A program made the translations under genes and the position numbers. A stretch of DNA of 64,000 bases, from positions 26,202 through 90,201 of the forward strand of contig DAISMS010000002.1 in assembly GCA_036831405.1 (NCBI GenBank). The letters run 5' to 3'. Shown piece after piece: positions 1,754 to 64,000 of the stretch (the first letter of the stretch is position 1; each line of letters begins with the position of its first letter). The notes beneath the pieces are model-generated. The model did no database searches. It worked only from the letters and a program-made list of their open reading frames with translations, and was not told the DNA's origin. This DNA is from Clostridiales bacterium (GTDB lineage Bacteria; Bacillota; Clostridia; Oscillospirales; Acutalibacteraceae).

Positions 1754-2626
1754 ATGAATCAACAACCTTATCTTTCGCTTGACAGACCGCTCGGTTCCTG
1801 GGTGTGGAATGTTTCCTATTATGTAGTAAACTCAGAGGAAATGTTCAATTTTTGCAGAAAAAACCATGTAACCGAATTGTATTTGTCTATAAACAGAGAT
1901 GTAACCGATCTTGCCTATGTAGATCTAATCCGCAAGTGCGCTTCTTACGGCATTCGTGCGGCGGCACTTTCAGGGGATCCGTCATGGATTATTCCGTCCA
2001 GACAAAACGGATATTATGATTATCTGGAACGGGTTGACAGGATCAATGAATTATGCGGAGACGGTCCCAAATTCTATTCCCTCCATCTTGACGTTGAGCC
2101 CCACGTTCTGCCGGAAGCCAAGCGTGACGGATTGCAGGGCTTTGTTAAATATTTTGTTGACTTTATTAAAGAGGCTCGTGTGCATGCCGATGAGCGTTCT
2201 CTTTTACTTGAATGGGATATTCCGGCATGGTTTGGAAGATTTACCGATGAAGAAGCCGATTGTCCGTTAACCGAGACCATCTTCAGATATTGTGATGCGG
2301 TGGGCATAATGGCATACAGTGATACGGCGATGGGGCAATACAATGTCGTGATGCCAAATGTAGAAATGGCCAAAAAAATGGGCAAGTCATTAATGATCGG
2401 CACCGAAACAATGGATCTTGATGAAGCCAGACGTGAAGACGGAAACTGTGCCATTTCCTATTATGAAGAAGGCAAAATTTATATGTATCGCTGCCTGACT
2501 CAAATTAATTCTATGGTTGAAAAAACATACGATCAGTTTGGCTTTGCCATTCATGACATGAAGAGATGGATTGCACTTCAACCACATGTGCTGCCCCAAT
2601 ATGCGGAGGTGTACGCAAAATGCTGA
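1754..2626 (+). CDS. hypothetical protein, possibly a TIM-barrel glycoside-hydrolase-like protein
   Basis: 290-aa ORF. Its stop overlaps the next start (ATGCTGA at 2620-2626), implying co-translation with the GH94-like gene. I cannot name a signature motif, so the function is a guess from context. Confidence 0.5.
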   Translation: MNQQPYLSLDRPLGSWVWNVSYYVVNSEEMFNFCRKNHVTELYLSINRDVTDLAYVDLIRKCASYGIRAAALSGDPSWIIPSRQNGYYDYLERVDRINELCGDGPKFYSLHLDVEPHVLPEAKRDGLQGFVKYFVDFIKEARVHADERSLLLEWDIPAWFGRFTDEEADCPLTETIFRYCDAVGIMAYSDTAMGQYNVVMPNVEMAKKMGKSLMIGTETMDLDEARREDGNCAISYYEEGKIYMYRCLTQINSMVEKTYDQFGFAIHDMKRWIALQPHVLPQYAEVYAKC

Positions 2627-5238
2627 CGCGCAAGGTAGTGGATGCCAGAGAAAATGCAAACAGGCTGGCGGAGATTTATGACCGGTTAAATGCAGGGGCG
2701 TTTCATGATTGTGCACTGCCCGGAAAAACATGGTTTATTGAGCATGATGAAATTCTAACCTTACCTCGGGATGATGGGGATTGCCGCTATCCCTATGGTA
2801 GTGATGGATTTAATTTCTGGGCGTATACTTCGGGCTATATGCATAGCAATGAAGGCATTTTTTCTCCTTTTCTTCGAAGCACCGAAGGGCAGGAACCCAA
2901 GCTATGCTGGTTTGCCGCTTTTCCGAATGAAAACGGTATGGAAGTCGTTCCGTTGCTTTCGGTTCCCGACCTATCGGATGATGCCGTTCGGTATACGGTG
3001 TTTAATAAATCGTTTGTTACCTATATTACCGAGGCCAAGGGAATCCGGTTCAGTATCCGCGTATACGTGGCGGGGGACAGAGAGACCAGGATTACTCTAT
3101 GCGCTCAAAATTTAAGTAAAAAAGTAATCGATTTCTATATATCTTCCTATATGAATCCGTTTCTCTTGCATGACGTAAACGAAAACGGGGAAAACCGTTG
3201 GTTCAGAGAGGTTTCAGTATGTGCAAACGAGAACAAGACTTTGCTTCCTGATTTTGTGGTGCGCTGCAGCGAAAATCTCAGCAGAACAAAACAGGTAAAT
3301 AACTACGGAGTGCTGAAACGTGCCCTCAGCTTGTCTGGCGGAGCCTCTCTTCTGTCCCATGAGGAAACCACCTCCCGATATCGATATACAGGCGGCAGTC
3401 GATCCAGTCTGCATAATCCGGCAGGTGTTCGCAAGGGAACCTTTGGTGAAACCCGTCATGTTACCACATTTACCGAGGTTGGTATCTGCGGTGATCTGCT
3501 GAAGTTTTCTCTTCCCGCCGATGGAGCGATTCGCCAGGACAGTGCATTCTCTTATCGCATTCATTGTGATAATGCGGCACCGATGGAGGAAATGAGATCA
3601 AAACATCCTTCTGCCGATGTTTTTGATTCAGAACTCGAAGCCCTGTTAACCCAAGAGGAAAATAAGAGCGCCGGACTTAAGATTGCCTTTGAGGAAGGGG
3701 AAAGTGAAAAGCTTTCTTCCGGAGTGATGAACGCGTTTACCGAGCATTTGAAAAAGCAGGTAGAGTTCTGTGCCACAATCAAAGGATACATACAGCTTAG
3801 CGCAGGCTCCCTGATTGGCATCCGGGACGTTTTCCAGGCGCTTGAAGCATATTTGATGTGGCAGCCCGGCGAAGCCCGCGCCAAAATGCTGGAAGCACTT
3901 AGCTTTACCGACCCGTCGGGACGTTGTCCCCGTCAATATGCCCTGCCTGTTAGGGAAGGCGCCTCCCCTTCCATGGATCTTCGCCCCTTTATCGATCAGG
4001 GCGTTTGGGTGATTTCCACCATTGTAAACTACTTGAAATATACCGGAGACTTCGGCTTTTTGAATGAAGTTTGCGGATATTATAATATCGTTGATGAGAA
4101 AAAGCGTCTTGTGGAAAAGAGCAGCGAAAAGGATACGGTGCTGGAGCATATGCTTCGCATCATGAATTGGCTGCTGGATAAAACAGATCCCAAAACAAAC
4201 TGTATTCGGGTGCTTTTCGGTGACTGGAATGATGCGCTGGATGGATTGGGTGTCAGTGAGGATCCGAATCAAGAATACGGAAGCGGCGTTTCGGTCATGG
4301 CTGCAGCTCAGGTCTGGCAAAATCTCAATGAGATGATGCAGCTGCTTTCTTTGCTCAACTCTGACAAATATTCCGATACCATAACCGAGTATTCGGAACG
4401 TGCAGATGCTCTGGCGGTGGGGCTGCGGAAATACGGCATCGTTCACAACCAAAACGGTGAGGTGCGCATCAGCCATGGGTGGGGAGATCAGCTATCCTAT
4501 CATGTAGGCGGCTGGAATGATCCCGACGGAGTGTCCAGGCGTAGCTTGACTTCCAATGCATTTTGGGTACTAAGCGGACTGTACGATCGGGATATCGGTT
4601 TGCATGATATAATCAAAAATGATATTATGCAGCTTGATTCAAAATACGGGCTGAGAACCTTTGACCCGCACTTTGAGCCTGACGCCAAAGGCGTCGGACG
4701 TATTCCAAAACTGCCTGCCGGAACTGCCGAAAACGGCGCCGCTTATATTCATGCCTCTGTATTCGGTGTGATGGCGCTATTCAGAATGGGTTGCGCCAAG
4801 GAGGCGTGGGACAAACTGTTGAAGTCTCTGCCTGTAACCCATAAAACCATTTCGGTATCACCCTTTGTCATGCCCAATTCTTACTGTGAGAACCCGGAAA
4901 AGAATATAGACGGGGAATCCATGATGGATTGGCAGACCGGCAGCTCTAATGTTGTGCTGAAGCTGTTGATGCGTTTTGTAGCCGGTATTAAGCCGGAATA
5001 TGACGGCGTCTGGATCCAGCCTGCCAACTACTGCCCGTTTAAGGGATATAAGGCAGAGTTGATGGTAAAAGGCGCAAAAATAAAAGTGGAGTATCGCAAA
5101 ACCGGTTTGGGCGATCGCAAGTTTACGGTAAATGGGGAGCCGATGGACGGCAAATATAACGAATTTTTGAAAACAAAACGCTTGTGGATGCCCGCATCAA
5201 AGCTGGTCGATACTGTAGATATTGTGGTGGAAGACTAA
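2620..5238 (+). CDS. GH94-like glycoside phosphorylase (cellobiose/chitobiose phosphorylase superfamily)
   Basis: Start placed at ATG 2620 (MLTRKVVDARE), which overlaps the upstream stop; the 2566 ATG lies inside the previous gene. FGDWNDALDG resembles the catalytic-Asp DWND segment of GH94 phosphorylases. Size is about 870 aa. Confidence 0.65.
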   Translation: MLTRKVVDARENANRLAEIYDRLNAGAFHDCALPGKTWFIEHDEILTLPRDDGDCRYPYGSDGFNFWAYTSGYMHSNEGIFSPFLRSTEGQEPKLCWFAAFPNENGMEVVPLLSVPDLSDDAVRYTVFNKSFVTYITEAKGIRFSIRVYVAGDRETRITLCAQNLSKKVIDFYISSYMNPFLLHDVNENGENRWFREVSVCANENKTLLPDFVVRCSENLSRTKQVNNYGVLKRALSLSGGASLLSHEETTSRYRYTGGSRSSLHNPAGVRKGTFGETRHVTTFTEVGICGDLLKFSLPADGAIRQDSAFSYRIHCDNAAPMEEMRSKHPSADVFDSELEALLTQEENKSAGLKIAFEEGESEKLSSGVMNAFTEHLKKQVEFCATIKGYIQLSAGSLIGIRDVFQALEAYLMWQPGEARAKMLEALSFTDPSGRCPRQYALPVREGASPSMDLRPFIDQGVWVISTIVNYLKYTGDFGFLNEVCGYYNIVDEKKRLVEKSSEKDTVLEHMLRIMNWLLDKTDPKTNCIRVLFGDWNDALDGLGVSEDPNQEYGSGVSVMAAAQVWQNLNEMMQLLSLLNSDKYSDTITEYSERADALAVGLRKYGIVHNQNGEVRISHGWGDQLSYHVGGWNDPDGVSRRSLTSNAFWVLSGLYDRDIGLHDIIKNDIMQLDSKYGLRTFDPHFEPDAKGVGRIPKLPAGTAENGAAYIHASVFGVMALFRMGCAKEAWDKLLKSLPVTHKTISVSPFVMPNSYCENPEKNIDGESMMDWQTGSSNVVLKLLMRFVAGIKPEYDGVWIQPANYCPFKGYKAELMVKGAKIKVEYRKTGLGDRKFTVNGEPMDGKYNEFLKTKRLWMPASKLVDTVDIVVED

Positions 5239-5351
5239 CGGTTGGATTCAGCATGTAAATGAAGTTGTTTCGAGCAATAGAGGATCTGTCGGTCAAGGGG
5301 CAGCCGACAAATCCGCGGTGGATCATCCCAGAAAACGCCCCTTTTCAAATC

Positions 5352-5403
5352 GGTTTTATATCCTTTCCGGGTATAAAACCCGGAAAGGATATGAATCTGA
5401 ATT
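5352..5403 (+). promoter_or_regulatory. conserved hairpin leader element, copy 1
   Basis: GGTTTTATATCCTTTCCGGGTATAAAACCCGGAAAGGATATGAATCTGAATT lies directly before the ATG at 5404. It has a perfect 14-bp stem, ATATCCTTTCCGGG/CCCGGAAAGGATAT. Near-identical elements occur at 36262 and 38829. Confidence 0.45.
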
Positions 5404-6810
5404 ATGATTCAATTTGGAACAGGCGGCTGGCGCGCCATTATAGGAGACGGCTTTACAAAGGCAAATGTTCAGCTGCTTACCGCTGCCCTTGCGCGAAAAA
5501 TGAAGGATGCCGATCTTTCCGGCTTCGTCATCGGATATGATCGCCGATTTCTGTCCAAACAGTCTGCATATTGGGCGGCTGAAGTTATGGCTGGGGAAGG
5601 TGTCCTGTGCAAGGTTATCAACTACGATGCTCCGACACCGTTGGTTATGTTCTCTGTGAAGTATTTTGATTTGAGCTTTGGTATGATTATAACTGCCAGC
5701 CACAATCCTGCCATCTATAACGGCATCAAGGTATTTACCAAGGGCGGCAGGGATGCGGATGAAACGGTTACTGCTGAAATCGAGAAGTACATTTGCGGGA
5801 TTGATCCGGAGACCATCCGCACAATTCCGTATGAGGACGCACGCTCAAGCGGCTTGATAGAGGAGATTAATCCACAGAACGCGTATCTAGATTCGATTAT
5901 CCGCGGCATTAATATCGATGCCATTCGGAGCAGAAATCTGAAGATTGTATTGGACCCCATGTACGGTGTATCCAAAACCTCATTACAGACCATCCTACTG
6001 ACCGCTCGCTGTGATGTAAATGTGATCCATGAGCGGCATGATACCCTGTTCGGCGGACGCTTGCCTGCTCCCAATGTCGAGACGCTGAATGCCCTCAAAA
6101 ACTATGTCATGGAAAGTCATGCCGACATCGGGATTGCAACCGACGGAGATGCAGACCGTCTGGGAATCATCAATGACGAGGGAGAATTTGTTCATCCCAA
6201 TCAAATTCTTGTTATTCTTTACTATTATCTTTTGAAATATAAGGGCTGGCATGGCCCTGCCGTACGCAACATCGCAACCACCCACCTGCTTGACAAGGTT
6301 GCGGATGCATTCGGCGAAACCTGTTATGAAGTACCGGTTGGCTTCAAGCATATATCGGGAAAGATGATAGAAACCAATGCGGTGATCGGCGGAGAGTCCT
6401 CGGGCGGGTTGACGGTTCGCGGACATATTCAGGGCAAGGATGGAATTTATGCTGCTTCCCTTCTCGTCGAGATGCTGGCGGTTACAGGCAACAATCTTTC
6501 TCAAATTTATGACGATATAACCAATGAATTCGGACATCTTGTTATGGCCGAGCGGGATTATCGCTTTACCGAACAGAGAAAAGCAGAAATCAAGCAAATG
6601 CTCATGGAAGAAAAGAAGCTTCCCGAATTTCCCTGTGAGATCGAAAAGGTATCCTATCTGGATGGCTGCAAGGTGTATTTCAAAAACGGCGGCTGGATTA
6701 TTGCCCGCTTTTCCGGTACCGAACCGCTGATTCGTATCTTCTGTGAGATGCAGGAGAAAGCCCAGGCGGATCAGATCTGCGACATCATGAAGGATTTTCT
6801 TGGTCTGTAG
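5404..6810 (+). CDS. alpha-D-phosphohexomutase (phosphoglucomutase / phosphomannomutase / GlcNAc-phosphate mutase family)
   Basis: All four family loops are present: TASHNPAIYNGIK (active Ser), GIATDGDADR (Mg), GGESSGG (sugar) and RFSGTEPLIR (phosphate). Confidence 0.9.
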   Translation: MIQFGTGGWRAIIGDGFTKANVQLLTAALARKMKDADLSGFVIGYDRRFLSKQSAYWAAEVMAGEGVLCKVINYDAPTPLVMFSVKYFDLSFGMIITASHNPAIYNGIKVFTKGGRDADETVTAEIEKYICGIDPETIRTIPYEDARSSGLIEEINPQNAYLDSIIRGINIDAIRSRNLKIVLDPMYGVSKTSLQTILLTARCDVNVIHERHDTLFGGRLPAPNVETLNALKNYVMESHADIGIATDGDADRLGIINDEGEFVHPNQILVILYYYLLKYKGWHGPAVRNIATTHLLDKVADAFGETCYEVPVGFKHISGKMIETNAVIGGESSGGLTVRGHIQGKDGIYAASLLVEMLAVTGNNLSQIYDDITNEFGHLVMAERDYRFTEQRKAEIKQMLMEEKKLPEFPCEIEKVSYLDGCKVYFKNGGWIIARFSGTEPLIRIFCEMQEKAQADQICDIMKDFLGL

Positions 6811-26777: not shown

Positions 26778-26854
26778 TGGTCGGAGTGATGTGACTCGAA
26801 CACACGGCCTCTTGGTCCCGAACCAAGCGCTCTACCAAACTGAGCTACACCCCG
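26778..26854 (-). tRNA. tRNA-Pro (anticodon CGG)
   Basis: The reverse complement folds as a cloverleaf: acceptor CGGGGTG/CACTCCG, D arm GCTC..GAGC, anticodon stem CTTGG/CCAAG with loop TTCGGGA, T arm GTGTG-TTCGAGT-CACAT, discriminator A and an encoded CCA. Confidence 0.9.
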
Positions 26855-29131: not shown

Positions 29132-30688
29132 TTATCCCAATATCTTCTTCAAATCCTCTTCAGGAGTGGAGATGGGAGATATATTAAAGTTATCGACAAG
29201 AAATTGAAGAACATTGGAGGAGATAAAGGCGGGAAGCGTCGGCCCAAGATAGATATTTTTGATACCGAGAGAGAGCAGGGTAAGCAGGATGCAGACCGCT
29301 TTCTGTTCGTACCAAGACAGAACAAGGGTGAGCGGCAGCTCGTTTACGCCGCAGTCAAAGGCGTCTGACAATGCCAGAGCGACACGTATGGCGCTGTAGG
29401 CGTCGTTGCACTGACCCATGTCCATGATGCGCGGGAGTCCGCCGATATCGCCGAGATCCAGGTCGTTGAAGCGATATTTTCCGCACGCCAATGTAAGGAT
29501 TACAGAATCGGAGGGAGACTGCTTCACAAACTCGGTGTAATAATTACGTCCGGGTTTTGCGCCGTCACAGCCGCCGACAAGAAAGAAGTGCTTAATGGCA
29601 CCGTTTTTCACCGCGTCAATCACCTTATCTGCCACAGACAGAACCGTACCATGTCCGAAACCGGTGGTAACCTGTGTTCCGCCATTGATGCCGGTCATGA
29701 CTTGATCCTCGACGTAACCGCCCAGTTCCAGCGCTTTCTCAATCACCGGCGTAAAGTCCTTGTTGTCATCAATATGTACCATGCCGGGGTATGCAACCAC
29801 CTCGGTTGTAAAAATGCGATCGCGATAGCTGTCTTTAACAGGCATTAGACAGTTTGTGGTGAACAAAACCGGGGCGGGGATATTGTGAAACTCTTTTTGC
29901 TGGTTCTGCCATGCAGTTCCGAAATTACCTTTAAGATGAGGATAGGCTTGCAGCTTGGGGTAAGCATGCGCCGGCAGCATTTCGCCATGGGTGTAAATGT
30001 TGATACCCTTGTCCTTGGTCTGCTCCAGCAACAGATGAAGGTCATAAAGATCATGGCCACTGATTACGATAAACGGCCCTTTTTCAATTGTGAGCGGAAC
30101 AGTGGTGGGAACCGGTGTTCCATAGGTTTGGGTGTTTGCCTTGTCAAGCAGCTCCATGCACTTGAGGTTGGCTTTTCCGGTTTCCATGACAATGGGAAGC
30201 AGCTCATCCATTCCGATGTCCTCGCCGATGGCTTTCATTCCCTTGTAAAAAAAGCTGTCGACCTCTGGGTGGGTATAACCGAGCATCAGTGCGTGATACG
30301 CATAAGCAGCCATTCCACGAAGTCCGAAAAGAATTAAGGATTTGAGTGAGCGTATATCCTCATGATCGTTCCAAAGCTTTTGCATATCGTAATCACGGCA
30401 GCTCGGGTCAAGCACATTCTTCTCTTTATGTACGGCTTGGATATGACTTCTGACTGCATCATCATCAAAATTGACATTGGTGATGGTTGTAAACAGACCC
30501 TCCAGCATGGCTCGGTTAGCATGTGCAGTCGGTTGTTTCCCCTCGGCCGAGCGGGCAAGTCCCACAAGTGCGCCGGTGAGCTGGTCCTGCAGGTTTGAGT
30601 TATCCGCAGTTTTACCGCATACCCCCATCCTTCCTGTACATCCGCTGCATCCAGCAGTCTGCTCACATTGAAAACAAAACATTGACAT
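29132..30688 (-). CDS. hcp: hybrid-cluster protein / hydroxylamine reductase
   Basis: N-terminal MFCFQCEQTAGCSGCTG..GVCGK Cys motif. ATG 30688 lies 8 nt after GGAGG. Confidence 0.9.
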   Translation of the reverse strand: MSMFCFQCEQTAGCSGCTGRMGVCGKTADNSNLQDQLTGALVGLARSAEGKQPTAHANRAMLEGLFTTITNVNFDDDAVRSHIQAVHKEKNVLDPSCRDYDMQKLWNDHEDIRSLKSLILFGLRGMAAYAYHALMLGYTHPEVDSFFYKGMKAIGEDIGMDELLPIVMETGKANLKCMELLDKANTQTYGTPVPTTVPLTIEKGPFIVISGHDLYDLHLLLEQTKDKGINIYTHGEMLPAHAYPKLQAYPHLKGNFGTAWQNQQKEFHNIPAPVLFTTNCLMPVKDSYRDRIFTTEVVAYPGMVHIDDNKDFTPVIEKALELGGYVEDQVMTGINGGTQVTTGFGHGTVLSVADKVIDAVKNGAIKHFFLVGGCDGAKPGRNYYTEFVKQSPSDSVILTLACGKYRFNDLDLGDIGGLPRIMDMGQCNDAYSAIRVALALSDAFDCGVNELPLTLVLSWYEQKAVCILLTLLSLGIKNIYLGPTLPAFISSNVLQFLVDNFNISPISTPEEDLKKILG

Positions 30689-30709
30689 AATTGTTACCTC
30701 CAAAGTTAA

Positions 30710-35671: not shown

Positions 35672-35748
35672 TGGCCCGCCCGGAGGGATTCGAACCCCCG
35701 GCCTTCAGAATCGGAATCTGCTGCGATATCCAGCTTCGCCACGGGCGG
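35672..35748 (-). tRNA. tRNA-Arg (anticodon CCG)
   Basis: Reverse-complement cloverleaf: acceptor CCGCCCG/CGGGCGG, D arm GCGA..TCGC, anticodon loop TTCCGAT, variable AGGCC, T arm GGGGG-TTCGAAT-CCCTC, discriminator G and an encoded CCA. The C1-G72 pair is unusual for Arg. Confidence 0.85.
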
Positions 35749-38878: not shown

Positions 38879-41347
38879 ATGTATCGTTTTAAAGGATTTA
38901 CCGAAAAAGCAAATACAGCTCTAAATCTTGCGATTCAAGCAGCCCAGGAACTTGGCCATACTTATATCGGAACCGAGCATCTTGTACTGGGGCTCCTCCG
39001 TGAGGGAACCGGTGTTGCGGCTTCGGTTATGGGCACAAGAGGGGTAACAGCCGCCCAGTATCAAGAGGCAATTTCCCATGCTGAATCGTCGGGTGAGCCC
39101 AACAGACTGTCTCCCGAGGATTTTACACCCCGCGCAAAAAAAGCCATGGAGATGGCTATGAGTGAAGCCGCTGCTATGCAGCACGGATATGTAGGAACAG
39201 AGCATATTTTGATGGCAATCCTGCGTGATGAAAGCAGTGTTGCGGTTCGTCTGCTTGCTGCGCTCGGCGCAAGAACCGATGATCTGTTCGGAGATATCTC
39301 ACAGGCGATTGGGATGAGTACCCCTCAGACTGCATCCGAAGGAATTCGCGGAGGAAGATCCAATGTGGCAAGATCAGGCGGCAAAACCCCGACGCTTGAC
39401 CAGTTCGGACGCGATTTAACGCAGTATGCCCGTGAAGGCAAGCTTGATCCGGTTATTGGGCGCGCCAACGAGATAGAACGCGTGATTCAGATTTTATCAC
39501 GCCGTACAAAAAACAATCCCTGCCTGATTGGCGAACCGGGTGTCGGTAAAACCGCGATTGCAGAAGGTCTTGCACAGAAGATCGCTTCGGACGAAGTGCC
39601 CGAGCTGCTGCATGGCAAGCGGGTTGTGACACTTGACTTGACCGGGATGGTAGCAGGTACAAAATACCGTGGCGATTTTGAAGAGCGGATTAAGAATGCA
39701 ATCGATGAGGTAATCAAAGCCAAAGACGTCGTTTTGTTTATTGATGAGATTCATACGCTAATCGGAGCGGGTGCCGCCGAAGGCGCAGTCGACGCTGCCA
39801 ATATACTAAAGCCATCTCTGGCGAGGGGCGAGCTGCAGATCATTGGTGCAACCACCCTTGATGAATATCGGAAGCATATTGAAAAGGATGCTGCACTGGA
39901 ACGGCGCTTCCAGCCGGTTACGGTAGGAGAACCCACTTCGGAAGAGGCGGTGCAGATTCTTCGCGGACTACGCGATAAATATGAAGCGCATCATAAGGTT
40001 AAAATTATCGACCAGGCGATTGAAGCGGCTGTCCGGTTGTCGGTACGTTATATTTCCGACCGCTATCTGCCCGACAAGGCGATTGACCTTGTGGATGAGG
40101 CGGCTTCCAGAGTACGCCTGCGCGCTTTTACACCGCCCCCTGATTTAAAGAGGCTTGAAGACGAGGTCAAGCGGTTGGATGAGGAAAAGAAATCAGCCGT
40201 TAACGAGCAGGATTTTGAACGTGCTGCCCGTCTGCGCGATCAGCAGAAGATTGTCGAGGAAAATCTAAAATCCATGAAAAATGAATGGCAGGAAAAGAAT
40301 TCGGGTATCACCGGTCAGGTGAACGAGCATGAAATTGCCGAGATTGTATCAAGCTGGACGGGCGTGCCTGTTGTACAGCTTACCGAAGAGGAAGGGCAAC
40401 GACTGCTTCGCATGGAGAATATTCTCCATGAACGGATTGTAGGTCAGAATGAAGCGGTAACCGCCGTTTCAAAAGCGATACGGCGCGGAAGAGTGGGGCT
40501 TAAGGATCCAAAGCGTCCCACCGGTTCATTCATTTTCCTCGGCCCGACGGGTGTTGGCAAAACTGAGTTATGTAAGGCGCTGGCAGAGGCGATGTTTGGA
40601 GACGAGGACGCCATGATTCGACTGGATATGTCTGAATATATGGAAAAGCATTCGGTATCCCGCCTTGTAGGCTCACCTCCCGGATATGTCGGCTATGATG
40701 AGGGAGGACAGCTCACCGAGAAAATCCGACGCAAGCCTTACTCCGTTTTATTGTTTGATGAAATTGAAAAAGCTCACCCCGATGTGTTCAATATGCTGCT
40801 CCAGATTCTTGAGGACGGTATACTGACCGATGCACAGGGAAGAAGAGTCGATTTTAAAAACTCCATCATCATCATGACGTCAAATGTCGGCGCAAGACTG
40901 ATCACCGAAAAGCACAGTCTCGGCTTCGGAGATGCGGGGCGTGGGGAGAGCGATGAAGCCGATCAGAAGAGGATACGTGACAATGTTATGGGCGAGCTGA
41001 AACGTGCCTTTCGTCCCGAGTTCCTCAACCGGGTGGACGATATTATTGTTTTCAGCAAGCTTTCCCAGAAGGATATACAGGAGATTGCCCGCCGTATGCT
41101 CAGCCAGCTTGACAAGCGATTGGCCGATATGGACATACGCGTTTCGGTGACCGATGAAGCGGTTGAGCAAATTTCTAAAGAAGGATTTGATCCGGTTTAC
41201 GGAGCTCGTCCGCTCCGTCGCGCCATTCAGTCCAAGATTGAGGATGCCATGGCGGAAAGTCTGTTGGAAGGCAAGTTTAAAGCCGGAAGCAATATTGTGG
41301 TCGATGCGGATGAGAACGGATTTGTATTCAAAAGCAGCGATGAATGA
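38879..41347 (+). CDS. clpC: ATP-dependent Clp protease ATP-binding subunit ClpC
   Basis: Clp N-repeats, two AAA+ modules ([16 protein letters not shown]) and a UVR linker; 822 aa. Confidence 0.95.
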
Positions 41348-48774: not shown

Positions 48775-50379
48775 CTAACGGGATTTTTGGTTTTTTAAAG
48801 CGGCAGCTATCAGACCGCGGAACAGCGGATGGGGGCGGTTTGGACGGGACTTAAACTCAGGATGGAATTGGCAGCCCACAAACCACGGATGATCGGCAAT
48901 TTCGATCATCTCGACGATATGCTTGTCCGGTGAAATACCCGCAAGGATTATGCCGCTCTTTTCGATCTCTTCCCGGTAGTCGTTATTAAGCTCATAACGG
49001 TGGCGGTGACGCTCATAAATGAGCTCCTCACCATAATCCTGATATGCTTTTGAGTTAATATCAAGAACACAGGGATACTTGCCCCGCCGCATTGTACCTC
49101 CGAGCTGATTCACATTCAGCTGATCCGGCATAAGATTAATGATGGGATGGGTTGTGGTGGGATCGATTTCGCTTGAATTTGCATCGGCATATCCCAGAAC
49201 ATTGCGGGCAAACTCAATCACTGCCACCTGCATGCCGAGGCATATTCCGAGATATGGAAGTTTGTTTTCTCTTGCATACCGAGCCGCTGCAATTTTACCG
49301 TCAATGCCGCGTTTTCCAAATCCGCCTGGCACAAGAATTCCATCTACATCGCAGAAGGTTTGGGCTGCGTTTTCCCATGTTACCTTTTCGGAGTCTATCC
49401 ATTTTATATTTACAGCTGAATCACTTGGAATGCCGCCATGCTTAAGCGCCTCGGCGATACTGAGGTATGCATCGCGCAGCTCAATATACTTGCCGACCAG
49501 CGCAATGGTTACGCTCTCTTTTGGGTAGCGAAGTGCTTCAACCATGCTTGTCCACTCTGTCAAGTCAAGTTTCAGCTCGTCAAGACCGAAGTGGCGGCAG
49601 ACGATATGTGCAAGTCCCTCTTGTTCTAGCACAAGAGGGGCTTCATATAACAGCGGAACATCACAGTTGGCTATAACGCAGTCCTTTTGGACATTGCAGA
49701 AAAGAGCAATTTTATCCTTAATATCCTGTGACAATTGGTTTTCTGCCCGGCATACAATGATATCGGGCTGGATACCAAGTGAAAGCAACTCCTTGACAGA
49801 ATGCTGTGTGGGTTTGGTTTTCATTTCCTGGGATGCTGCAATATAAGGAACGAGCGTCACATGCAGAAACAGGCAGTTTGCACGTCCGTGCTGAATGCTG
49901 AACTGGCGGATGGCCTCAAGAAAGGGCAGGCCTTCAATATCTCCTACCGTTCCCCCAATTTCTATAATATGAACATCATATTTATCAGAATCCAGGGCAA
50001 TCCGCCTTTTTATTTCATCGGTGATATGCGGAATAACCTGAACGGTGCCGCCGTTATAGTCGCCGTTGCGTTCCTTTTGCAGAACATTCCAGTAAACCTT
50101 TCCGGAGGTGACCGAGCTATTTTGGCTCAGACTGATGTCAATAAAACGTTCGTAGTGGCCAAGATCGAGGTCGGTCTCAGCGCCGTCGTCCGTAACAAAC
50201 ACCTCACCATGCTGTATCGGGTTCATGGTGCCCGGATCAATATTGAGATAGGGATCCAGCTTCTTTACAGACACACTGAGCCCCCTACATTTAAGAAGTC
50301 TACCGAGTGAAGCCGCAGTAATTCCCTTGCCAAGACCAGATACCACGCCTCCGGTTACAAAAACATACTTTGATGCCAT
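48775..50379 (-). CDS. pyrG: CTP synthase
   Basis: [24 protein letters not shown]-terminus and the GICLGMQ glutaminase Cys. Confidence 0.95.
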
Positions 50380-57829: not shown

Positions 57830-59002
57830 TCATGATTGATTGTCGGTATGCTTACGGGATTCTTGGAACAGAATCGTAAGATCTTTCTGCCCGGACGGAA
57901 GGGGAATCAGGTCAATATACTGGATTGCAGTGATCCCGTTATAGAGGGGTATGCCTGAATAACGTGCACCGCAGTACCCGTTGGCCGAGACTTCTATTGT
58001 GCAGGGAGCGGGGGGATCGCACAATGGGATTGCCACAACCGGTGTACTCCCGCTGCCGTCGGTTCGGACGGTTTTATGCACCTTTTGAGTTGAAAATCCG
58101 GCTCTGGTTATGGTTACACGTGCGTCGTAAATCGGAACAGGGTTGCGTCCCGAGGTGACCTTCACCTGAAGATTGGCGGGTTTGGATGAATCAGGTTTAG
58201 GCATCGAGGCAAGAACCGCTTTTTTATCGGCTCGGAAGGGACGAAATTTCGATGGAGCGGTGGGGCATTCATCATCTGGAAAGGAAACGAATGAATGGTT
58301 TGCCGGAACGGGTTGATTTGTTTCCTGGGAGACGGCGGAGGTATCCTGAACCGGGCGAAACATGGAGGGAGCAGGCGGACAGTCATCCTCAACCATAAAG
58401 GACGCTGGGGTGCCGTCCACGGGAGTATCCCGCAGCAGGTCACCGTTGACCCGTGAGGTCTGAATTGTGGGTTGGGGGCGAAACATGGATGGTGAAAGCG
58501 GGGAATCATCGTCGAATAGATTGGAGACTTCAACCAGATTGGGTTCTTGTGGGGTGTTCTGTACAGCTTCTCTTTTTTCAAGGGCAACAGCAGCCGATAT
58601 CCCTACGTTGTTTGGACGAAACATAGAGGGGGAGGGAGAGCATTCTTGCTCAGGCTGGTTCGACATAATACTTTGAACCATTGAAGAAACAGCGACGGGG
58701 GATGGGACAAAAACGGAGGGTGCCGCGGCGGCAGGGGGGGTGCCGAATTTAGCGGGTTCCCGATCATCCGCTTTCGGTTCTTGATTATGTAAGCGGACAG
58801 GGGTGTTTTCTGACTCCTGTCGAGGTTCCTGCTGGAATTTCTTTCGGGGTTCACTCCCTAATTCCGGTGTTTCAGGTTTTGCTGATTGCTCCGGCTTTTG
58901 AGTATCGGACAGTTTTTTTCGTTTATAGGAAGCCATGAGCTCGTTTTGATATTTTTGTATCATTTCCTGAAGCTGCGAGGGGGTATACTGTTCCTGATTC
59001 AT
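57830..59002 (-). CDS. Pro-rich protein with four PSMFRP repeats and a C-terminal beta-sandwich-like domain
   Basis: Repeats: EQECSPSPSMFRP, DDDSPLSPSMFRP, EDDCPPAPSMFRP, DDECPTAPSKFRP. The stop lies 18 nt before the spoVB start. Confidence 0.6.
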   Translation of the reverse strand: MNQEQYTPSQLQEMIQKYQNELMASYKRKKLSDTQKPEQSAKPETPELGSEPRKKFQQEPRQESENTPVRLHNQEPKADDREPAKFGTPPAAAAPSVFVPSPVAVSSMVQSIMSNQPEQECSPSPSMFRPNNVGISAAVALEKREAVQNTPQEPNLVEVSNLFDDDSPLSPSMFRPQPTIQTSRVNGDLLRDTPVDGTPASFMVEDDCPPAPSMFRPVQDTSAVSQETNQPVPANHSFVSFPDDECPTAPSKFRPFRADKKAVLASMPKPDSSKPANLQVKVTSGRNPVPIYDARVTITRAGFSTQKVHKTVRTDGSGSTPVVAIPLCDPPAPCTIEVSANGYCGARYSGIPLYNGITAIQYIDLIPLPSGQKDLTILFQESRKHTDNQS

Positions 59003-59353: not shown

Positions 59354-60541
59354 TCAACTTGTATAATAGCTTATGGTAATGTTGCTAGGGAGATTGGACA
59401 GCTTATAAAATAAAGCACCGTCCGGGATTATTCCAACATGTTGTCCATATGCTCCAGTGCCATCAATAGCGAAAACAGGTGCACCACTATCTCCAGATTG
59501 CGAAAAATAATTTGCCAAGACTAAATCTTCATGATTAAAACCAGCATAAGTTGTTTTCACGCTTGGAATGGTGATTGTGCCCGGGCGCTCACCAGATGTA
59601 GAGCCATGCATGTAAACTTTTTGTCCAGCTTTATAATTAGTCGTGCTCGTTCTGTTATATGGTAAAGTTCTTCCTTTGGGAGTCTCTGGATTCGGTACCC
59701 AACTAGAGTCTTCTCTGGTTACAAACGAAAAATCGGTTTTACCTGATTCATTTTTGAAGGTAACCTTCCCTGCTTTTTTACCATCGCCTCGGTATACAGG
59801 AGAATTAATAGCCTGTCCATGATGTCCGGTAATTAAGAAACCCTTGGTACCATTGTATGTGGCTCCCCATGCTGCAGTGAATCCACCGTTGCCACAGGTA
59901 TACCTTGTTCCTCCCATAACTGTATTAACGTGGTATTCAAAGTTAGATTGTTTTTCCTTAAAGAAAACCATCCTTAAATCTACAACTTTTGCTACTTTAT
60001 CCCTTATTTCTTGGGTAAGTTTATCGACCCGCACTTCAACATACCCGTTTTTTTCATCACGCCCAACAAAAGTGATATCCAAGTCTTTCATATTATCGCC
60101 CAATTTGTTATAGCAATCGACTAATTCTTGCAATGTGAACGCTACAACTTTTGTTTTGTAATCTATGCCGTTTTTTAAAGTAATCATGTTCTGGGCATCA
60201 ACAAATTTTTTAAGCTGCATGCTTTTTTCACTTAACCTGCCGACCAAATTGATAACTAACGCACCGTCATCGTCATAGTAAGAACCTCCAAAATCCTTGG
60301 GTGAAAATGTTTCATCTATTTTATTGGCAAGTATGTGAAGTTCTTTTTGTTGTGCAAATTCTTCTTTCGATATCAAGTCTGAATATGATTCGTCCCAGCC
60401 TTCGTATAATCGCTCTTTTTCAAAATTAAAATTCCCGGAAGCAGCTGAAGCGGATATCATAAGAATTAAAGAAGACAAAAGAAGCGAAGTAAAGACTTTT
60501 TTAACATATTTTGCTCTTTTCACAAGTATCAATCCTTTCAC
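59354..60541 (-). CDS. secreted S1-family (chymotrypsin/streptogrisin-like) serine protease with a prodomain
   Basis: Signal peptide, LITGHHG (His), and GDSGAPVF (Ser). AT-rich gene. Confidence 0.75.
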   Translation of the reverse strand: MKGLILVKRAKYVKKVFTSLLLSSLILMISASAASGNFNFEKERLYEGWDESYSDLISKEEFAQQKELHILANKIDETFSPKDFGGSYYDDDGALVINLVGRLSEKSMQLKKFVDAQNMITLKNGIDYKTKVVAFTLQELVDCYNKLGDNMKDLDITFVGRDEKNGYVEVRVDKLTQEIRDKVAKVVDLRMVFFKEKQSNFEYHVNTVMGGTRYTCGNGGFTAAWGATYNGTKGFLITGHHGQAINSPVYRGDGKKAGKVTFKNESGKTDFSFVTREDSSWVPNPETPKGRTLPYNRTSTTNYKAGQKVYMHGSTSGERPGTITIPSVKTTYAGFNHEDLVLANYFSQSGDSGAPVFAIDGTGAYGQHVGIIPDGALFYKLSNLPSNITISYYTS

Positions 60542-61207: not shown

Positions 61208-61235
61208 TTGACTTTCAGAATAAATGGCATATAAT
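61208..61235 (+). promoter_or_regulatory. sigma-A promoter of the aspS leader
   Basis: TTGACT, then 16 nt, then TATAAT. Confidence 0.55.
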
Positions 61236-61261: not shown

Positions 61262-61510
61262 CGGGAAGAGTAGACTCGACAGGACGTTTCAGAGAGCCGG
61301 GGAAGGTGCAAGCCCGGTACCGATAGTCGGGAGGAAGAACATCCCTGAGTTTCCATCCGAAAGCCTTTTCAGGTCAGTAGGCGTGGACGTCGGGCGGCAC
61401 GTTACAGCCGTAAACCATAGGTGATGAGTGGATCGTTAAACGGTCTATTTGGGTGGTACCGCGGAAGCATCGTCTTTCGTCCCAGTTTCAGGGATGAAGG
61501 GCGTTTTTTA
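61262..61510 (+). ncRNA. T-box riboswitch leader, specifier read as AAC (Asn)
   Basis: Stem I: GGGA-AGAGUAG, AG bulge CAGAGAG, distal loop GGUGCAA. The 3' side of the specifier loop reads GGAAG-AAC-A directly before the closing UCCC and the UGA K-turn. T-box sequence TTTGGGTGGTACCGCG at 61448-61463. Terminator at 61471-61509 with G-U pairs plus TTTTTT. Confidence 0.85.
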
Positions 61511-61570: not shown

Positions 61571-63652
61571 ATGAAACGAACCGACTATTGCGGCGCATTG
61601 CGTGAAAAGGATGTAGGCCGCACCATTACGGCGATGGGCTGGGCACAGAATAAGCGTGATATGGGGGGCGTTATTTTTATTGACCTGCGGGATAGAGAGG
61701 GTACGCTGCAGGTGGTTTTTGATGCGCGCAATCTTTCAGCAGAGGATTTTACGGCGGCCGAGCTTCTTAAGGTGGAATCAACCATTGCCGTCACCGGACT
61801 GCTGCGCCCTCGTGACCAGGAAACCTATAATCCGAGACTGGCGACAGGCACAATCGAGCTTGCCGCTACAAAGCTGGAGGTACTCTCCGAGGCCGAAACC
61901 CTGCCGTTTCAGCTGGAGGATGCAGCCAATGTTCGGGAGGATCTGCGACTAAAATACCGCTTTATTGATCTCCGCCGCCCCAAGCTGCTGAATAATCTGC
62001 GGTTCAGAGCCGCTGTTGTCAAGACGGTCTGTGATTATCTCGACAACGATGGATTTATTCAGATAGAGACGCCCATGCTGACCAAAAGCCCGCCCGAGGG
62101 TGCGAGGGACTACCTTGTTCCCAGCCGGGTGCATCAGGGCAAGTTTTACGCCCTGCCCCAGTCACCACAGATATTTAAGCAGCTTTTGATGGTGGGGGGA
62201 ATCGATAAATATTATCAGGTTGCCCGCTGCTTTCGCGACGAGGATCTGCGCGCCGATCGCCAGCCTGAATTCACCCAGGTGGATATGGAGATGTCGTTTG
62301 TTGGTCAGGAGGAGATTCTTATCCGGCTTGAAAAGCTGTTCAAGCATATTTTCAGCCGGACGCTGGGATTTGAATTCACCCAAGCCTTTCCCCGACTGAC
62401 ATGGCGTGAGTGTATGGACAGATACGGCAGCGATAAGCCGGATCTTCGATTTGATCTTCCCATCATCGACCTGACCGAGCAGATGCGGGGCTGCGGATTC
62501 TCAGTGTTCCGCAATGCAGTAGACAAAGGCGGTTATGTCCGCGCCATCAATGTCAAGGGCAGCGGTGATTTTACCCGCGGCACCATTGAGGATCTCACCG
62601 CCAAGGCACAGGGCTACGGCGCAAAGGGCATGGCATGGATTGCCATGAAGGAGGACGGAACACCCTATTCCATCCTGACCAAGTATTTTACTGAAAATGA
62701 ATTCGACAGCCTGCTTGGGGCAGTGGACGCAAAAGCGGGGGATTTCATTCTGTTCTGCGCCGACAAATATTCCACCGTCTGCCGCACCCTCGGCGGACTG
62801 CGGCTTGACCTTGCCGATATGATTGGGCTCCGCCGCAAGGATGATTATAAATTCCTGATTGTCACCGATTTCCCGGAATTTGAATATTCCGAGGAGGAGG
62901 GGCGCTATCTCGCAACACACCATCCGTTTACCATGCCCTACCCCGAGGACATCCCCTATCTCCTATCCGATCCGGGACGGGTGCGCGCCCAGGCCTATGA
63001 CGTGGTTCTCAACGGTGTCGAGCTGGGCAGCGGTAGCATCCGTATCCATCGCCGGGATGTACAGCAAACCATGTTTGAGGCACTGGGATTTGACGACGAG
63101 CAAATTGAAGAGCGGTTTGGATTTATGGTAAACGCTTTCCGTTACGGAACGCCTCCCCATGGGGGATTTGCATTCGGTCTTGACCGTCTTGTCATGCTGA
63201 TGTTGGGAGAGGATTCGCTTCGTGAGGTTATCGCATTCCCCAAGGTCAAGGACGCCAGCTGCCTGATGACCGATGCACCCAATGTCGTGGATCAGGAACA
63301 GCTGGATGTGCTGGGATTGACAGCCGGTCTGCTTGAGCAAGAACCGGCGGCTGCCACTCAAAACAAGCAGGTGGAAAAAATAAATGTGGACAACGTCGCC
63401 GAGCTCACCAAGCTCCAAATGAGCCAGAAGGAAAAAAAGGAGCTTGAAGCCGAATTGGAGACAATGATTGACTTTGTAAGTCAGCTTAAGGAGCTGGATA
63501 CCACCGGCGTGCCGGTTACCGATCATGCAGTACCGCTGAAAAATGTGCTTCGTGAGGATGTCCCCCATCAGCTTTATGACAGAGATGAGCTGCTTGCAAG
63601 CGCACCCCAAAAACAGGACGGATATATATTCGTACCGCAGGTCGTGGAATAG
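61571..63652 (+). CDS. aspS: aspartyl-tRNA synthetase fused in frame to a C-terminal GatC domain
   Basis: Class IIb AspRS motifs are present (FYALPQSPQ, FRDEDLRADRQPEF, GSIRIH, GGFAFGLDR). The normal AspRS end (AFPKVKDASCLMTDAP) is followed by a linker and a roughly 90-aa GatC-like module (nt 63380-63649). Confidence 0.9.
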   Translation: MKRTDYCGALREKDVGRTITAMGWAQNKRDMGGVIFIDLRDREGTLQVVFDARNLSAEDFTAAELLKVESTIAVTGLLRPRDQETYNPRLATGTIELAATKLEVLSEAETLPFQLEDAANVREDLRLKYRFIDLRRPKLLNNLRFRAAVVKTVCDYLDNDGFIQIETPMLTKSPPEGARDYLVPSRVHQGKFYALPQSPQIFKQLLMVGGIDKYYQVARCFRDEDLRADRQPEFTQVDMEMSFVGQEEILIRLEKLFKHIFSRTLGFEFTQAFPRLTWRECMDRYGSDKPDLRFDLPIIDLTEQMRGCGFSVFRNAVDKGGYVRAINVKGSGDFTRGTIEDLTAKAQGYGAKGMAWIAMKEDGTPYSILTKYFTENEFDSLLGAVDAKAGDFILFCADKYSTVCRTLGGLRLDLADMIGLRRKDDYKFLIVTDFPEFEYSEEEGRYLATHHPFTMPYPEDIPYLLSDPGRVRAQAYDVVLNGVELGSGSIRIHRRDVQQTMFEALGFDDEQIEERFGFMVNAFRYGTPPHGGFAFGLDRLVMLMLGEDSLREVIAFPKVKDASCLMTDAPNVVDQEQLDVLGLTAGLLEQEPAAATQNKQVEKINVDNVAELTKLQMSQKEKKELEAELETMIDFVSQLKELDTTGVPVTDHAVPLKNVLREDVPHQLYDRDELLASAPQKQDGYIFVPQVVE

Positions 63653-63664
63653 GAGGAAGCCGGA

Positions 63665-64000
63665 ATGAAAGAGCAAATAACAAAAATGACGGTTAGCCGG
63701 TTGAGTGAAGGGCTGTCAAGCAAAGAGATTTCGGCTGTCGAGGCCGCAAAGGCGTATCTGGACAAAATAACCGCTTGTGATAAAGAGATTGGCGCCTATC
63801 TCCAAGTGACTGCCGAGCAAGCCTTAAAACAAGCCCAACAAGTCGATCAGCTACGTGCCGCAGGAGAGCGGCTTTCCCCCCTTGCCGGCATCCCAGCGGG
63901 AATCAAGGATAATATTTGCGCAAAGGGTATAAACACAACCTGTGCTTCCCGTATGCTGGAGAACTTTGTTCCGCCTTACAATGCCTTTGTAATGCAGCGG
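63665..64000 (+). CDS. gatA: Asp/Glu-tRNA amidotransferase subunit A, 3' partial
   Basis: AGGAGGaagccggaATG; ...EISAVEAAKAYLDKI....LAGIPAGIKDNI (amidase signature start). Open to the window end. Confidence 0.9.
   Translation, partial: MKEQITKMTVSRLSEGLSSKEISAVEAAKAYLDKITACDKEIGAYLQVTAEQALKQAQQVDQLRAAGERLSPLAGIPAGIKDNICAKGINTTCASRMLENFVPPYNAFVMQR

Follow-up and report, generated by a model that had tools for sequence, protein, structure and literature searches.

A conserved AspRS–GatC fusion leads a T-box-controlled transamidation operon in an Oscillospiraceae bacterium and probably hard-wires the Asn-transamidosome

Transamidosomes are a textbook example of substrate channelling, in which the genetic code is protected from a deliberately mischarged tRNA. 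In a 64,000-nt stretch of an Oscillospiraceae bacterium (contig DAISMS010000002.1; hereafter the window), a single open reading frame (ORF) runs through aspartyl-tRNA synthetase (AspRS) into GatC, the small subunit of the amidotransferase GatCAB. This locus raises the question of whether two partners that act consecutively on tRNAAsn are made here as one polypeptide and, if so, what such a tether would do. Here, we report that aspS::gatC is a genuine and conserved bifunctional gene at the head of a T-box(Asn)–aspS::gatC–gatA–gatB operon, and we consider it probable that this tRNAAsn-regulated operon, by tethering AspRS covalently to GatCAB, encodes a hard-wired Asn-transamidosome.

The fusion ORF extends from ATG to TAG at positions 61571–63652 (forward strand, as are all elements of the operon) and encodes 693 aa with no internal stop codon. 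Its first part (residues 1–583; 61571..63319) is a bacterial-type AspRS according to Pfam, NCBIfam and PDB-chain matches, composed of the OB anticodon domain (PF01336; residues 20–105, 61628–61885), the class II D/K/N catalytic core (PF00152; residues 123–559, 61937–63247; E=9.5e-117) and, within the latter, the GAD insertion typical of bacterial AspRSs (PF02938; residues 313–407, 62507–62791). In NCBIfam, the aspS equivalog PRK00476 is matched over residues 1–584 with 806 bits (cutoff 443) and TIGR00459, the model of bacterial-type AspRS, with 740 bits (cutoff 374), while AspRS chains matched in the PDB include those of Thermus thermophilus (1EFW, 599 bits) and of the non-discriminating (ND) enzyme of Pseudomonas aeruginosa (4WJ3, 588 bits). 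A hydrophilic linker of 20 aa (TAGLLEQEPAAATQNKQVEK; residues 584–603, 63320..63379) connects this part to a GatC module that occupies residues 604–693 and, with the TAG stop, positions 63380..63652. The module matches PF02686 over residues 618–688 (E=1.2e-18, 67.5 bits versus a cutoff of 23) and covers the gatC equivalog TIGR00135 over all 93 of its 93 profile positions (residues 601–693; 84 bits versus a cutoff of 47). Alignment to GatC chains of known structure likewise extends over residues 7–93 of 94 in Aquifex aeolicus (3H0L), 4–95 of 100 in Staphylococcus aureus (2DF4) and 10–103 of 104 in 4WJ3. An earlier note on this DNA had described AspRS, linker and GatC in one frame with no stop between them, in an ORF roughly 100 aa longer than an ordinary AspRS. 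The ORF, Pfam and NCBIfam agree on the former, with all four domain profiles that the note had named (class II core, OB, GAD and GatC) matched and GatC well above its cutoff, and the latter is borne out by the unfused Clostridia AspRSs among our comparison loci, which measure 593–601 aa.

The architecture is conserved far beyond the window. Among proteins 72–100% identical to the window protein, the best 120 clusters formed at 90% identity all consist of 692–693-aa proteins carrying PF02686, some of these clusters representing 65–318 independent contigs from NCBI, ENA, JGI and Logan. The fusion is also carried by an isolate, [Clostridium] leptum DSM 753 (EDO60551.1, UniRef100_A7VUA1). In an alignment of nine orthologs, mean pairwise identity reaches 80% in the AspRS part and 55% in the GatC part, where 23 residues are invariant, and falls to 22% in the linker. 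The latter is rich in K, A, G, T, E, S and Q and hypervariable in sequence, and its length is held at 19–20 aa in these orthologs and at about 19–25 aa in more distant Firmicute fusions. In terms of sequence, this profile is that expected of two domains under constraint with a flexible spacer between them.

As the earlier note had it, gatA follows the fusion directly: its ORF starts at 63665, the 13th nucleotide after the fusion stop, with 12 nt in between. The 5′ portion of gatA that lies before the end of the window (63665..64000) encodes an Amidase/GatA N-terminus by Pfam. The Shine–Dalgarno (SD) sequence of gatA, AGGAGG, overlaps the stop codon of the fusion, and a strong SD precedes gatA at every fusion locus examined. 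On a contig from the same species (L001), a 487-aa GatA is followed by a 478-aa GatB whose gene overlaps gatA, and ORFs that correspond to GatA and GatB by size alone lie 3′ of the fusion in loci L002, L004, L005 and L006; the contig of L003 ends too soon to show them.

Upstream, the operon bears the elements of tRNA-dependent control. A sigma-70-like promoter (TTGACT-16 nt-TATAAT, 11/12 matches; 61208..61235) is followed by a T-box leader (RF00230; 61249..61487) that Rfam recognizes over the full model (positions 1–219 of 219; 109 bits versus a gathering score of 93, E=3.6e-23). The leader contains the conserved T-box sequence GGTGGTACCGCG (61452..61463), with the antiterminator bulge UGGU that pairs with the tRNA 3′ NCCA end, and is followed by an intrinsic terminator with a 13-bp stem, a 7-nt loop and the run TTTTTT (61471..61509; minimum free energy −27.1 kcal/mol, z=−3.25). 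In T-box leaders, the specifier is the triplet that stands before the conserved purine ending the specifier loop. Here the 3′ side of this loop reads GAAGAACA (61334–61341), directly 5′ of the helix strand UCCC (61342–61345), and because the unpaired triplet AAC (61338..61340) precedes the loop-ending purine A61341, the specifier is AAC, an Asn codon.

The specifier is conserved across the leaders compared. Rfam recognizes T-box leaders above its gathering score in L002, L004 and L005 as in the window, and those of L003, L006 and L007 were found by motif search rather than by Rfam at that score. The loop reads GAAGAACA in L002, L006 and L007, as in the window, GAAGAACG in L003, GAACGAACA in L004 and GAAAAACA in L005; thus, AAC and the following purine are invariant in 7/7 Firmicute fusion loci amid variable flanking bases. 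When Stem I is folded to a consensus over the seven loci, the specifier bases remain unpaired and 17 of the 23 pairs show compensatory changes. In 6/7 loci, all but L005 with GAAAAACA, the Asn codon is overlapped by a GAA codon (GAAC).

We infer from this arrangement how tRNAAsn would be charged, how the complex would assemble and how its intermediate would be channelled. Transcription would start at the sigma-70-like promoter and end at the terminator of the leader as long as no uncharged tRNAAsn is bound there. A bound tRNA would pair at two sites, through its anticodon GUU with the specifier AAC and through its free 3′ end with the bulge UGGU, and would thereby stabilize the antiterminator; when read through, the leader drives aspS::gatC–gatA–gatB. 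The AspRS part is expected to dimerize because it is a class II enzyme; with a complete GatC carried at its C-terminus on the flexible linker of about 20 residues, each protomer would hold one GatAB on a permanent tether. The resulting (AspRS-GatC)2·GatA2·GatB2 would be a constitutive, tRNA-independent Asn-transamidosome. Within this complex, AspRS would charge tRNAAsn with Asp, which GatCAB, being tethered, would at once amidate to give Asn-tRNAAsn, the intermediate not being released. The tether would thereby fix the stoichiometry and limit the escape of mischarged Asp-tRNAAsn. That the fusion tethers the amidotransferase to AspRS had been suggested in the earlier note, and the predicted domain architecture and the position of gatA fit this suggestion. 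GatC is known to be needed for the folding of GatA and for the GatA–GatB complex (PMC2330236), and a GatC-like subunit tolerates an N-terminal extension, as in GatF (PMC4027206). Moreover, the crystallized Gln-transamidosome of Thermotoga maritima (3AL0) holds an engineered GatC-linker-GluRS chain, crystals having been obtained only once GatC was joined artificially to the synthetase.

The proposal presumes an ND-AspRS, for which the Asn-specifier T-box provides indirect support. Several points qualify it. At the positions corresponding to H31 and G83, which we take to be anticodon-domain determinants of the P. aeruginosa ND-AspRS, the window protein has M31 and E84, which match neither the ND state nor the discriminating (D) state of the Escherichia coli and T. 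thermophilus enzymes, both with L at the first position. An AlphaFold2 model built from the nine-sequence alignment (predicted local distance difference test 50.8, predicted template modelling score 0.37) is too poor to inform on the linker or on docking. Within the 64-kb window, tblastn found no second aspS, no asnS and no stand-alone gatC, and nothing relevant to glnS. Finally, an SD-like AGGTGG (63367–63372) stands 13 nt before an in-frame GTG (63386) at the junction, from where a free GatC could be initiated.

In contrast to the fusion loci, none of 13 unfused Clostridia AspRS loci (0/13) has a T-box at the gathering score, and hisS lies immediately upstream of the unfused gene in 5/5 cases checked, that is, in hisS–aspS operons. 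In our tree of AspRS cores, a single neighbour-joining reconstruction without support values, these unfused AspRSs and the fused ones are sister clades. Judged by operon context and phylogeny, Clostridia look as if they hold two AspRS lineages, one housekeeping and the other attached to the transamidation operon. A further reading, possible yet decidedly tentative, is that the fused enzyme is a second AspRS specialized on tRNAAsn and distinct from that of the hisS–aspS operons; permanently joined to GatCAB, it would be a single-particle, two-step ‘AsnRS in cis’ that would never release Asp-tRNAAsn, and two or more independent origins would lie behind this solution. The GluRS2 of Helicobacter pylori, which is specialized on tRNAGln, offers an analogy.

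How often the fusion arose, and whether it was retained for a reason, bears on an alternative to the hard-wired transamidosome, namely that the stop codon between adjacent aspS and gatC was lost by neutral accident, leaving a tether without kinetic or fidelity benefit in an ordinary dynamic transamidosome. A scan of GTDB species genomes, in which the taxa and loci recorded represent a lower bound, revealed single-ORF fusions in at least Oscillospiraceae, metagenome-assembled genomes (MAGs) of other Clostridia, Ca. Limiplasma and a Tissierellaceae isolate, as well as in at least two Syntrophales-like Deltaproteobacteria; the fusion that the earlier note had suggested seeking in related Clostridia is thus present in several lineages. 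When residues 526–693 were searched against a representative library, about 20 of the best 150 matches spanned both modules, fragments being dominant in that library.

The deltaproteobacterial loci fit a model of a Syntrophales lineage already named in NCBIfam (NF009460/PRK12820), ‘bifunctional aspartyl-tRNA synthetase/aspartyl/glutamyl-tRNA amidotransferase subunit C’. The window protein aligns to this model over residues 5–688 with 618 bits, below the cutoff of 1379, and the Smithella-like loci L058 and L029 score 1348 and 1203 bits, respectively. In both of these, the GatC-like module falls below the TIGR00135 threshold and no T-box is present; downstream ORFs in L058 encode an amidase and GatB by Pfam, and the Syntrophales-type fusions may, judging by these divergent modules, serve a remodelled GatCAB. 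The amidase of L058 (locus 3381–6718) has 400 aa, and its best Pfam stretch corresponds to profile positions 156–445. In the neighbour-joining tree, Firmicute fusions form one clade and Syntrophales-type fusions another, distant one, with unfused AspRSs between them, which suggests that the AspRS–GatC fusion arose independently at least twice. A third independent lineage is probably represented by L082 (215–1696, on a 1.7-kb metagenome contig), where an AspRS C-terminus with ‘AFPLNGNAQD’ is followed by a GatC module and a downstream amidase.

Two further loci joined by tblastn, L008 and L045, were rejected as fusions, a stop codon separating aspS from gatC in each. L045 (711–2467), from an Acutalibacteraceae MAG, resembles the L082 type with separate, adjacent aspS and gatC. 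L008 (JACQJF010000039.1, approximately 3400–5507) is binned as ‘Candidatus Iainarchaeum archaeon’ (DPANN) and contains an AspRS-like gene followed by a separate gatC; the product of the former is 49% identical to residues 1–578 of the window protein and stands beside the Syntrophales-type fusions in the neighbour-joining tree, which could be due to misbinning or horizontal transfer.

In both loci, aspS and gatC appear to stand as they would before a fusion, adjacent but separate; such a pair can become one ORF when the stop codon is lost, and to this extent the two loci make a neutral origin an easy one. It would also be in keeping with a linker of unconstrained sequence and with the small size of GatC, whose N-terminus tolerates extensions (PMC4027206). 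Nevertheless, the fusion has been kept across several Firmicute orders with a linker of about 19–25 aa, and it appears to have originated independently in the Syntrophales lineage and probably a third time. Such recurrence and retention suggest that the fusion is at least mildly advantageous, and we consider a purely neutral accident rather unlikely.

A different objection to the hard-wired complex is that GatC might also, or even mainly, be supplied in free form, through internal initiation or proteolysis of the linker, in which case functional GatCAB would be untethered. The hypervariable and presumably disordered linker could well be accessible to proteases, and the AGGTGG…GTG of the window would be the candidate start. 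However, the junction shows neither a conserved start codon nor a conserved SD. In L002, ATG, GTG and TTG are all absent there in frame, and L005 offers only a TTG without SD; position 604 is an invariant Ile rather than Met or Val, and a spacing of 13 nt is long for an SD. A conserved internal start of GatC was therefore rejected, as the SD-like AGGTGG does not recur in the other fusion loci. At most, internal initiation would be a species-level side route, and the AGGTGG…GTG of the window may be what remains of the ribosome-binding site of the ancestral gatC; on balance, we deem a predominantly untethered GatC improbable. That an assembly or sequencing indel removed a stop or frameshift between two separate genes, a suspicion that draws on the prior expectation of indels in metagenome assemblies, has a negligible chance of being true and was rejected, considering that the same 692–693-aa ORF recurs in more than 120 clusters from four data sources and on hundreds of independent contigs, in the C. 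leptum isolate and in at least six further species-level genomes.

For the other large ORFs of the window that were screened, Pfam revealed no relation to Asn/Gln metabolism (CTP synthase, ClpB-type ATPase, MurJ, prismane and others); they include a GH94-family glycoside phosphorylase-like protein (2566–5238, +), a prismane/hybrid-cluster protein (29132–30703, −), a ClpB/ClpC-type AAA+ chaperone (38879–41347, +) and CTP synthase (48775–50379, −). The window also contains genes for tRNA-Pro(CGG) (26778–26854, −) and tRNA-Arg(CCG) (35672–35748, −), and no tRNAAsn gene, in which U1-A72 would be the identity pair for GatCAB, lies within it. Closer to the operon, a 390-aa proline-rich ORF (57830–59002, −) has about four copies of ‘D(D/E)CPxAPS(M/K)FRP’, a C-terminal beta-rich region and no Pfam match. 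A further ORF of 395 aa (59354–60541, −) has a signal-peptide-like N-terminus and no Pfam match at 1e-5, and its motif ‘SGDSGAPV’ recalls chymotrypsin-fold serine proteases.

The earlier note implied that this architecture had gone unrecognized, which the databases do not support. Besides the PRK12820 model, ‘Multifunctional fusion protein’ is the UniRef name of the C. leptum ortholog, and the fusion is common in gut metagenomes, hundreds of proteins bearing the Pfam annotation of its domains. The note's remark that no characterization of this architecture came to mind is borne out: our literature searches found no paper on a natural AspRS–GatC fusion, and no such fusion was found in the PDB. 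The architecture is thus catalogued but apparently biochemically uncharacterized. Because the NCBI name of the ortholog is only ‘aspartate--tRNA ligase’, genomes that carry the fusion can look as if they lacked gatC. Specialists will hardly be surprised by the fusion, yet as a reagent provided by nature it is useful. It is widespread in gut Clostridia, C. leptum can be cultured, and the natural fusion would offer a stable particle for cryo-electron microscopy of a bacterial-type Asn-transamidosome from a mesophile, while a comparison of split and fused forms could show whether tethering improves fidelity or flux. It also provides an example of the recurrent joining of consecutive pathway enzymes.

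Among the closest known systems are the non-covalent Asn-transamidosomes of T. thermophilus (3KFU), P. aeruginosa (4WJ3) and H. pylori, in which ND-AspRS and GatCAB likewise act consecutively on tRNAAsn. The P. aeruginosa AspRS is, like the AspRS part of the window protein, of the bacterial type with a GAD domain. In these systems, ND-AspRS, GatCAB and tRNAAsn form a complex that channels Asp-tRNAAsn and whose assembly depends on tRNAAsn, and the transamidosome built with the bacterial-type AspRS of H. pylori is dynamic (PMC3367201, PMC2330236). The peptide linker of the window protein would differ in keeping the partners associated constitutively and in a 1:1 ratio. Chain C of 3AL0 demonstrates that a transamidosome is compatible with GatC being covalently tethered to an ND synthetase; that chain, however, is artificial, has GatC at its N-terminus (the opposite polarity) and contains a class I GluRS of the Gln pathway. 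The extension of yeast GatF and the gatC–gatA fusion of Mycobacterium smegmatis show in turn that the heterotrimer still assembles when polypeptide is added at the ends of GatC (PMC4027206; PMC7541841). Unlike the fusion described here, neither links a synthetase: the GatF extension contacts GatA, and the M. smegmatis fusion, which arose by mutation and causes mistranslation, joins GatC to GatA itself (PMC7541841).

The PRK12820 family shares with the window the order of AspRS and GatC-like modules upstream of an amidase gene and gatB. It differs in that a T-box precedes the Firmicute fusions and none the Smithella-like loci, and in that the two groups occupy separate clades of the AspRS tree. 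In regulation, the nearest counterpart is the operon of Clostridium, reportedly described by Saad et al. (2012, JBC) as comprising AspRS and GatCAB under a tRNAAsn-dependent T-box. Their work of 2012 and 2013 is also said to place aspS and gatC of C. acetobutylicum in separate genes; the likeness to the window then lies in the T-box-controlled transamidation operon, and the difference in the single ORF that unites aspS and gatC here. The later study (2013, PNAS) reportedly introduced a ‘two-codon T-box’, with overlapping Asn and Glu codons and both tRNAAsn and tRNAGlu bound, and the GAAC of the window loop, seen here at the level of sequence, recalls that overlap. Control of the tRNA-dependent transamidation operon of C. 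acetobutylicum by a T-box leader is quoted in PMC4052509. The Firmicute AspRS–GatC fusions are thus a lineage of their own, set apart from the family that PRK12820 names, and their operons are of a known type, that of T-box-controlled transamidation.

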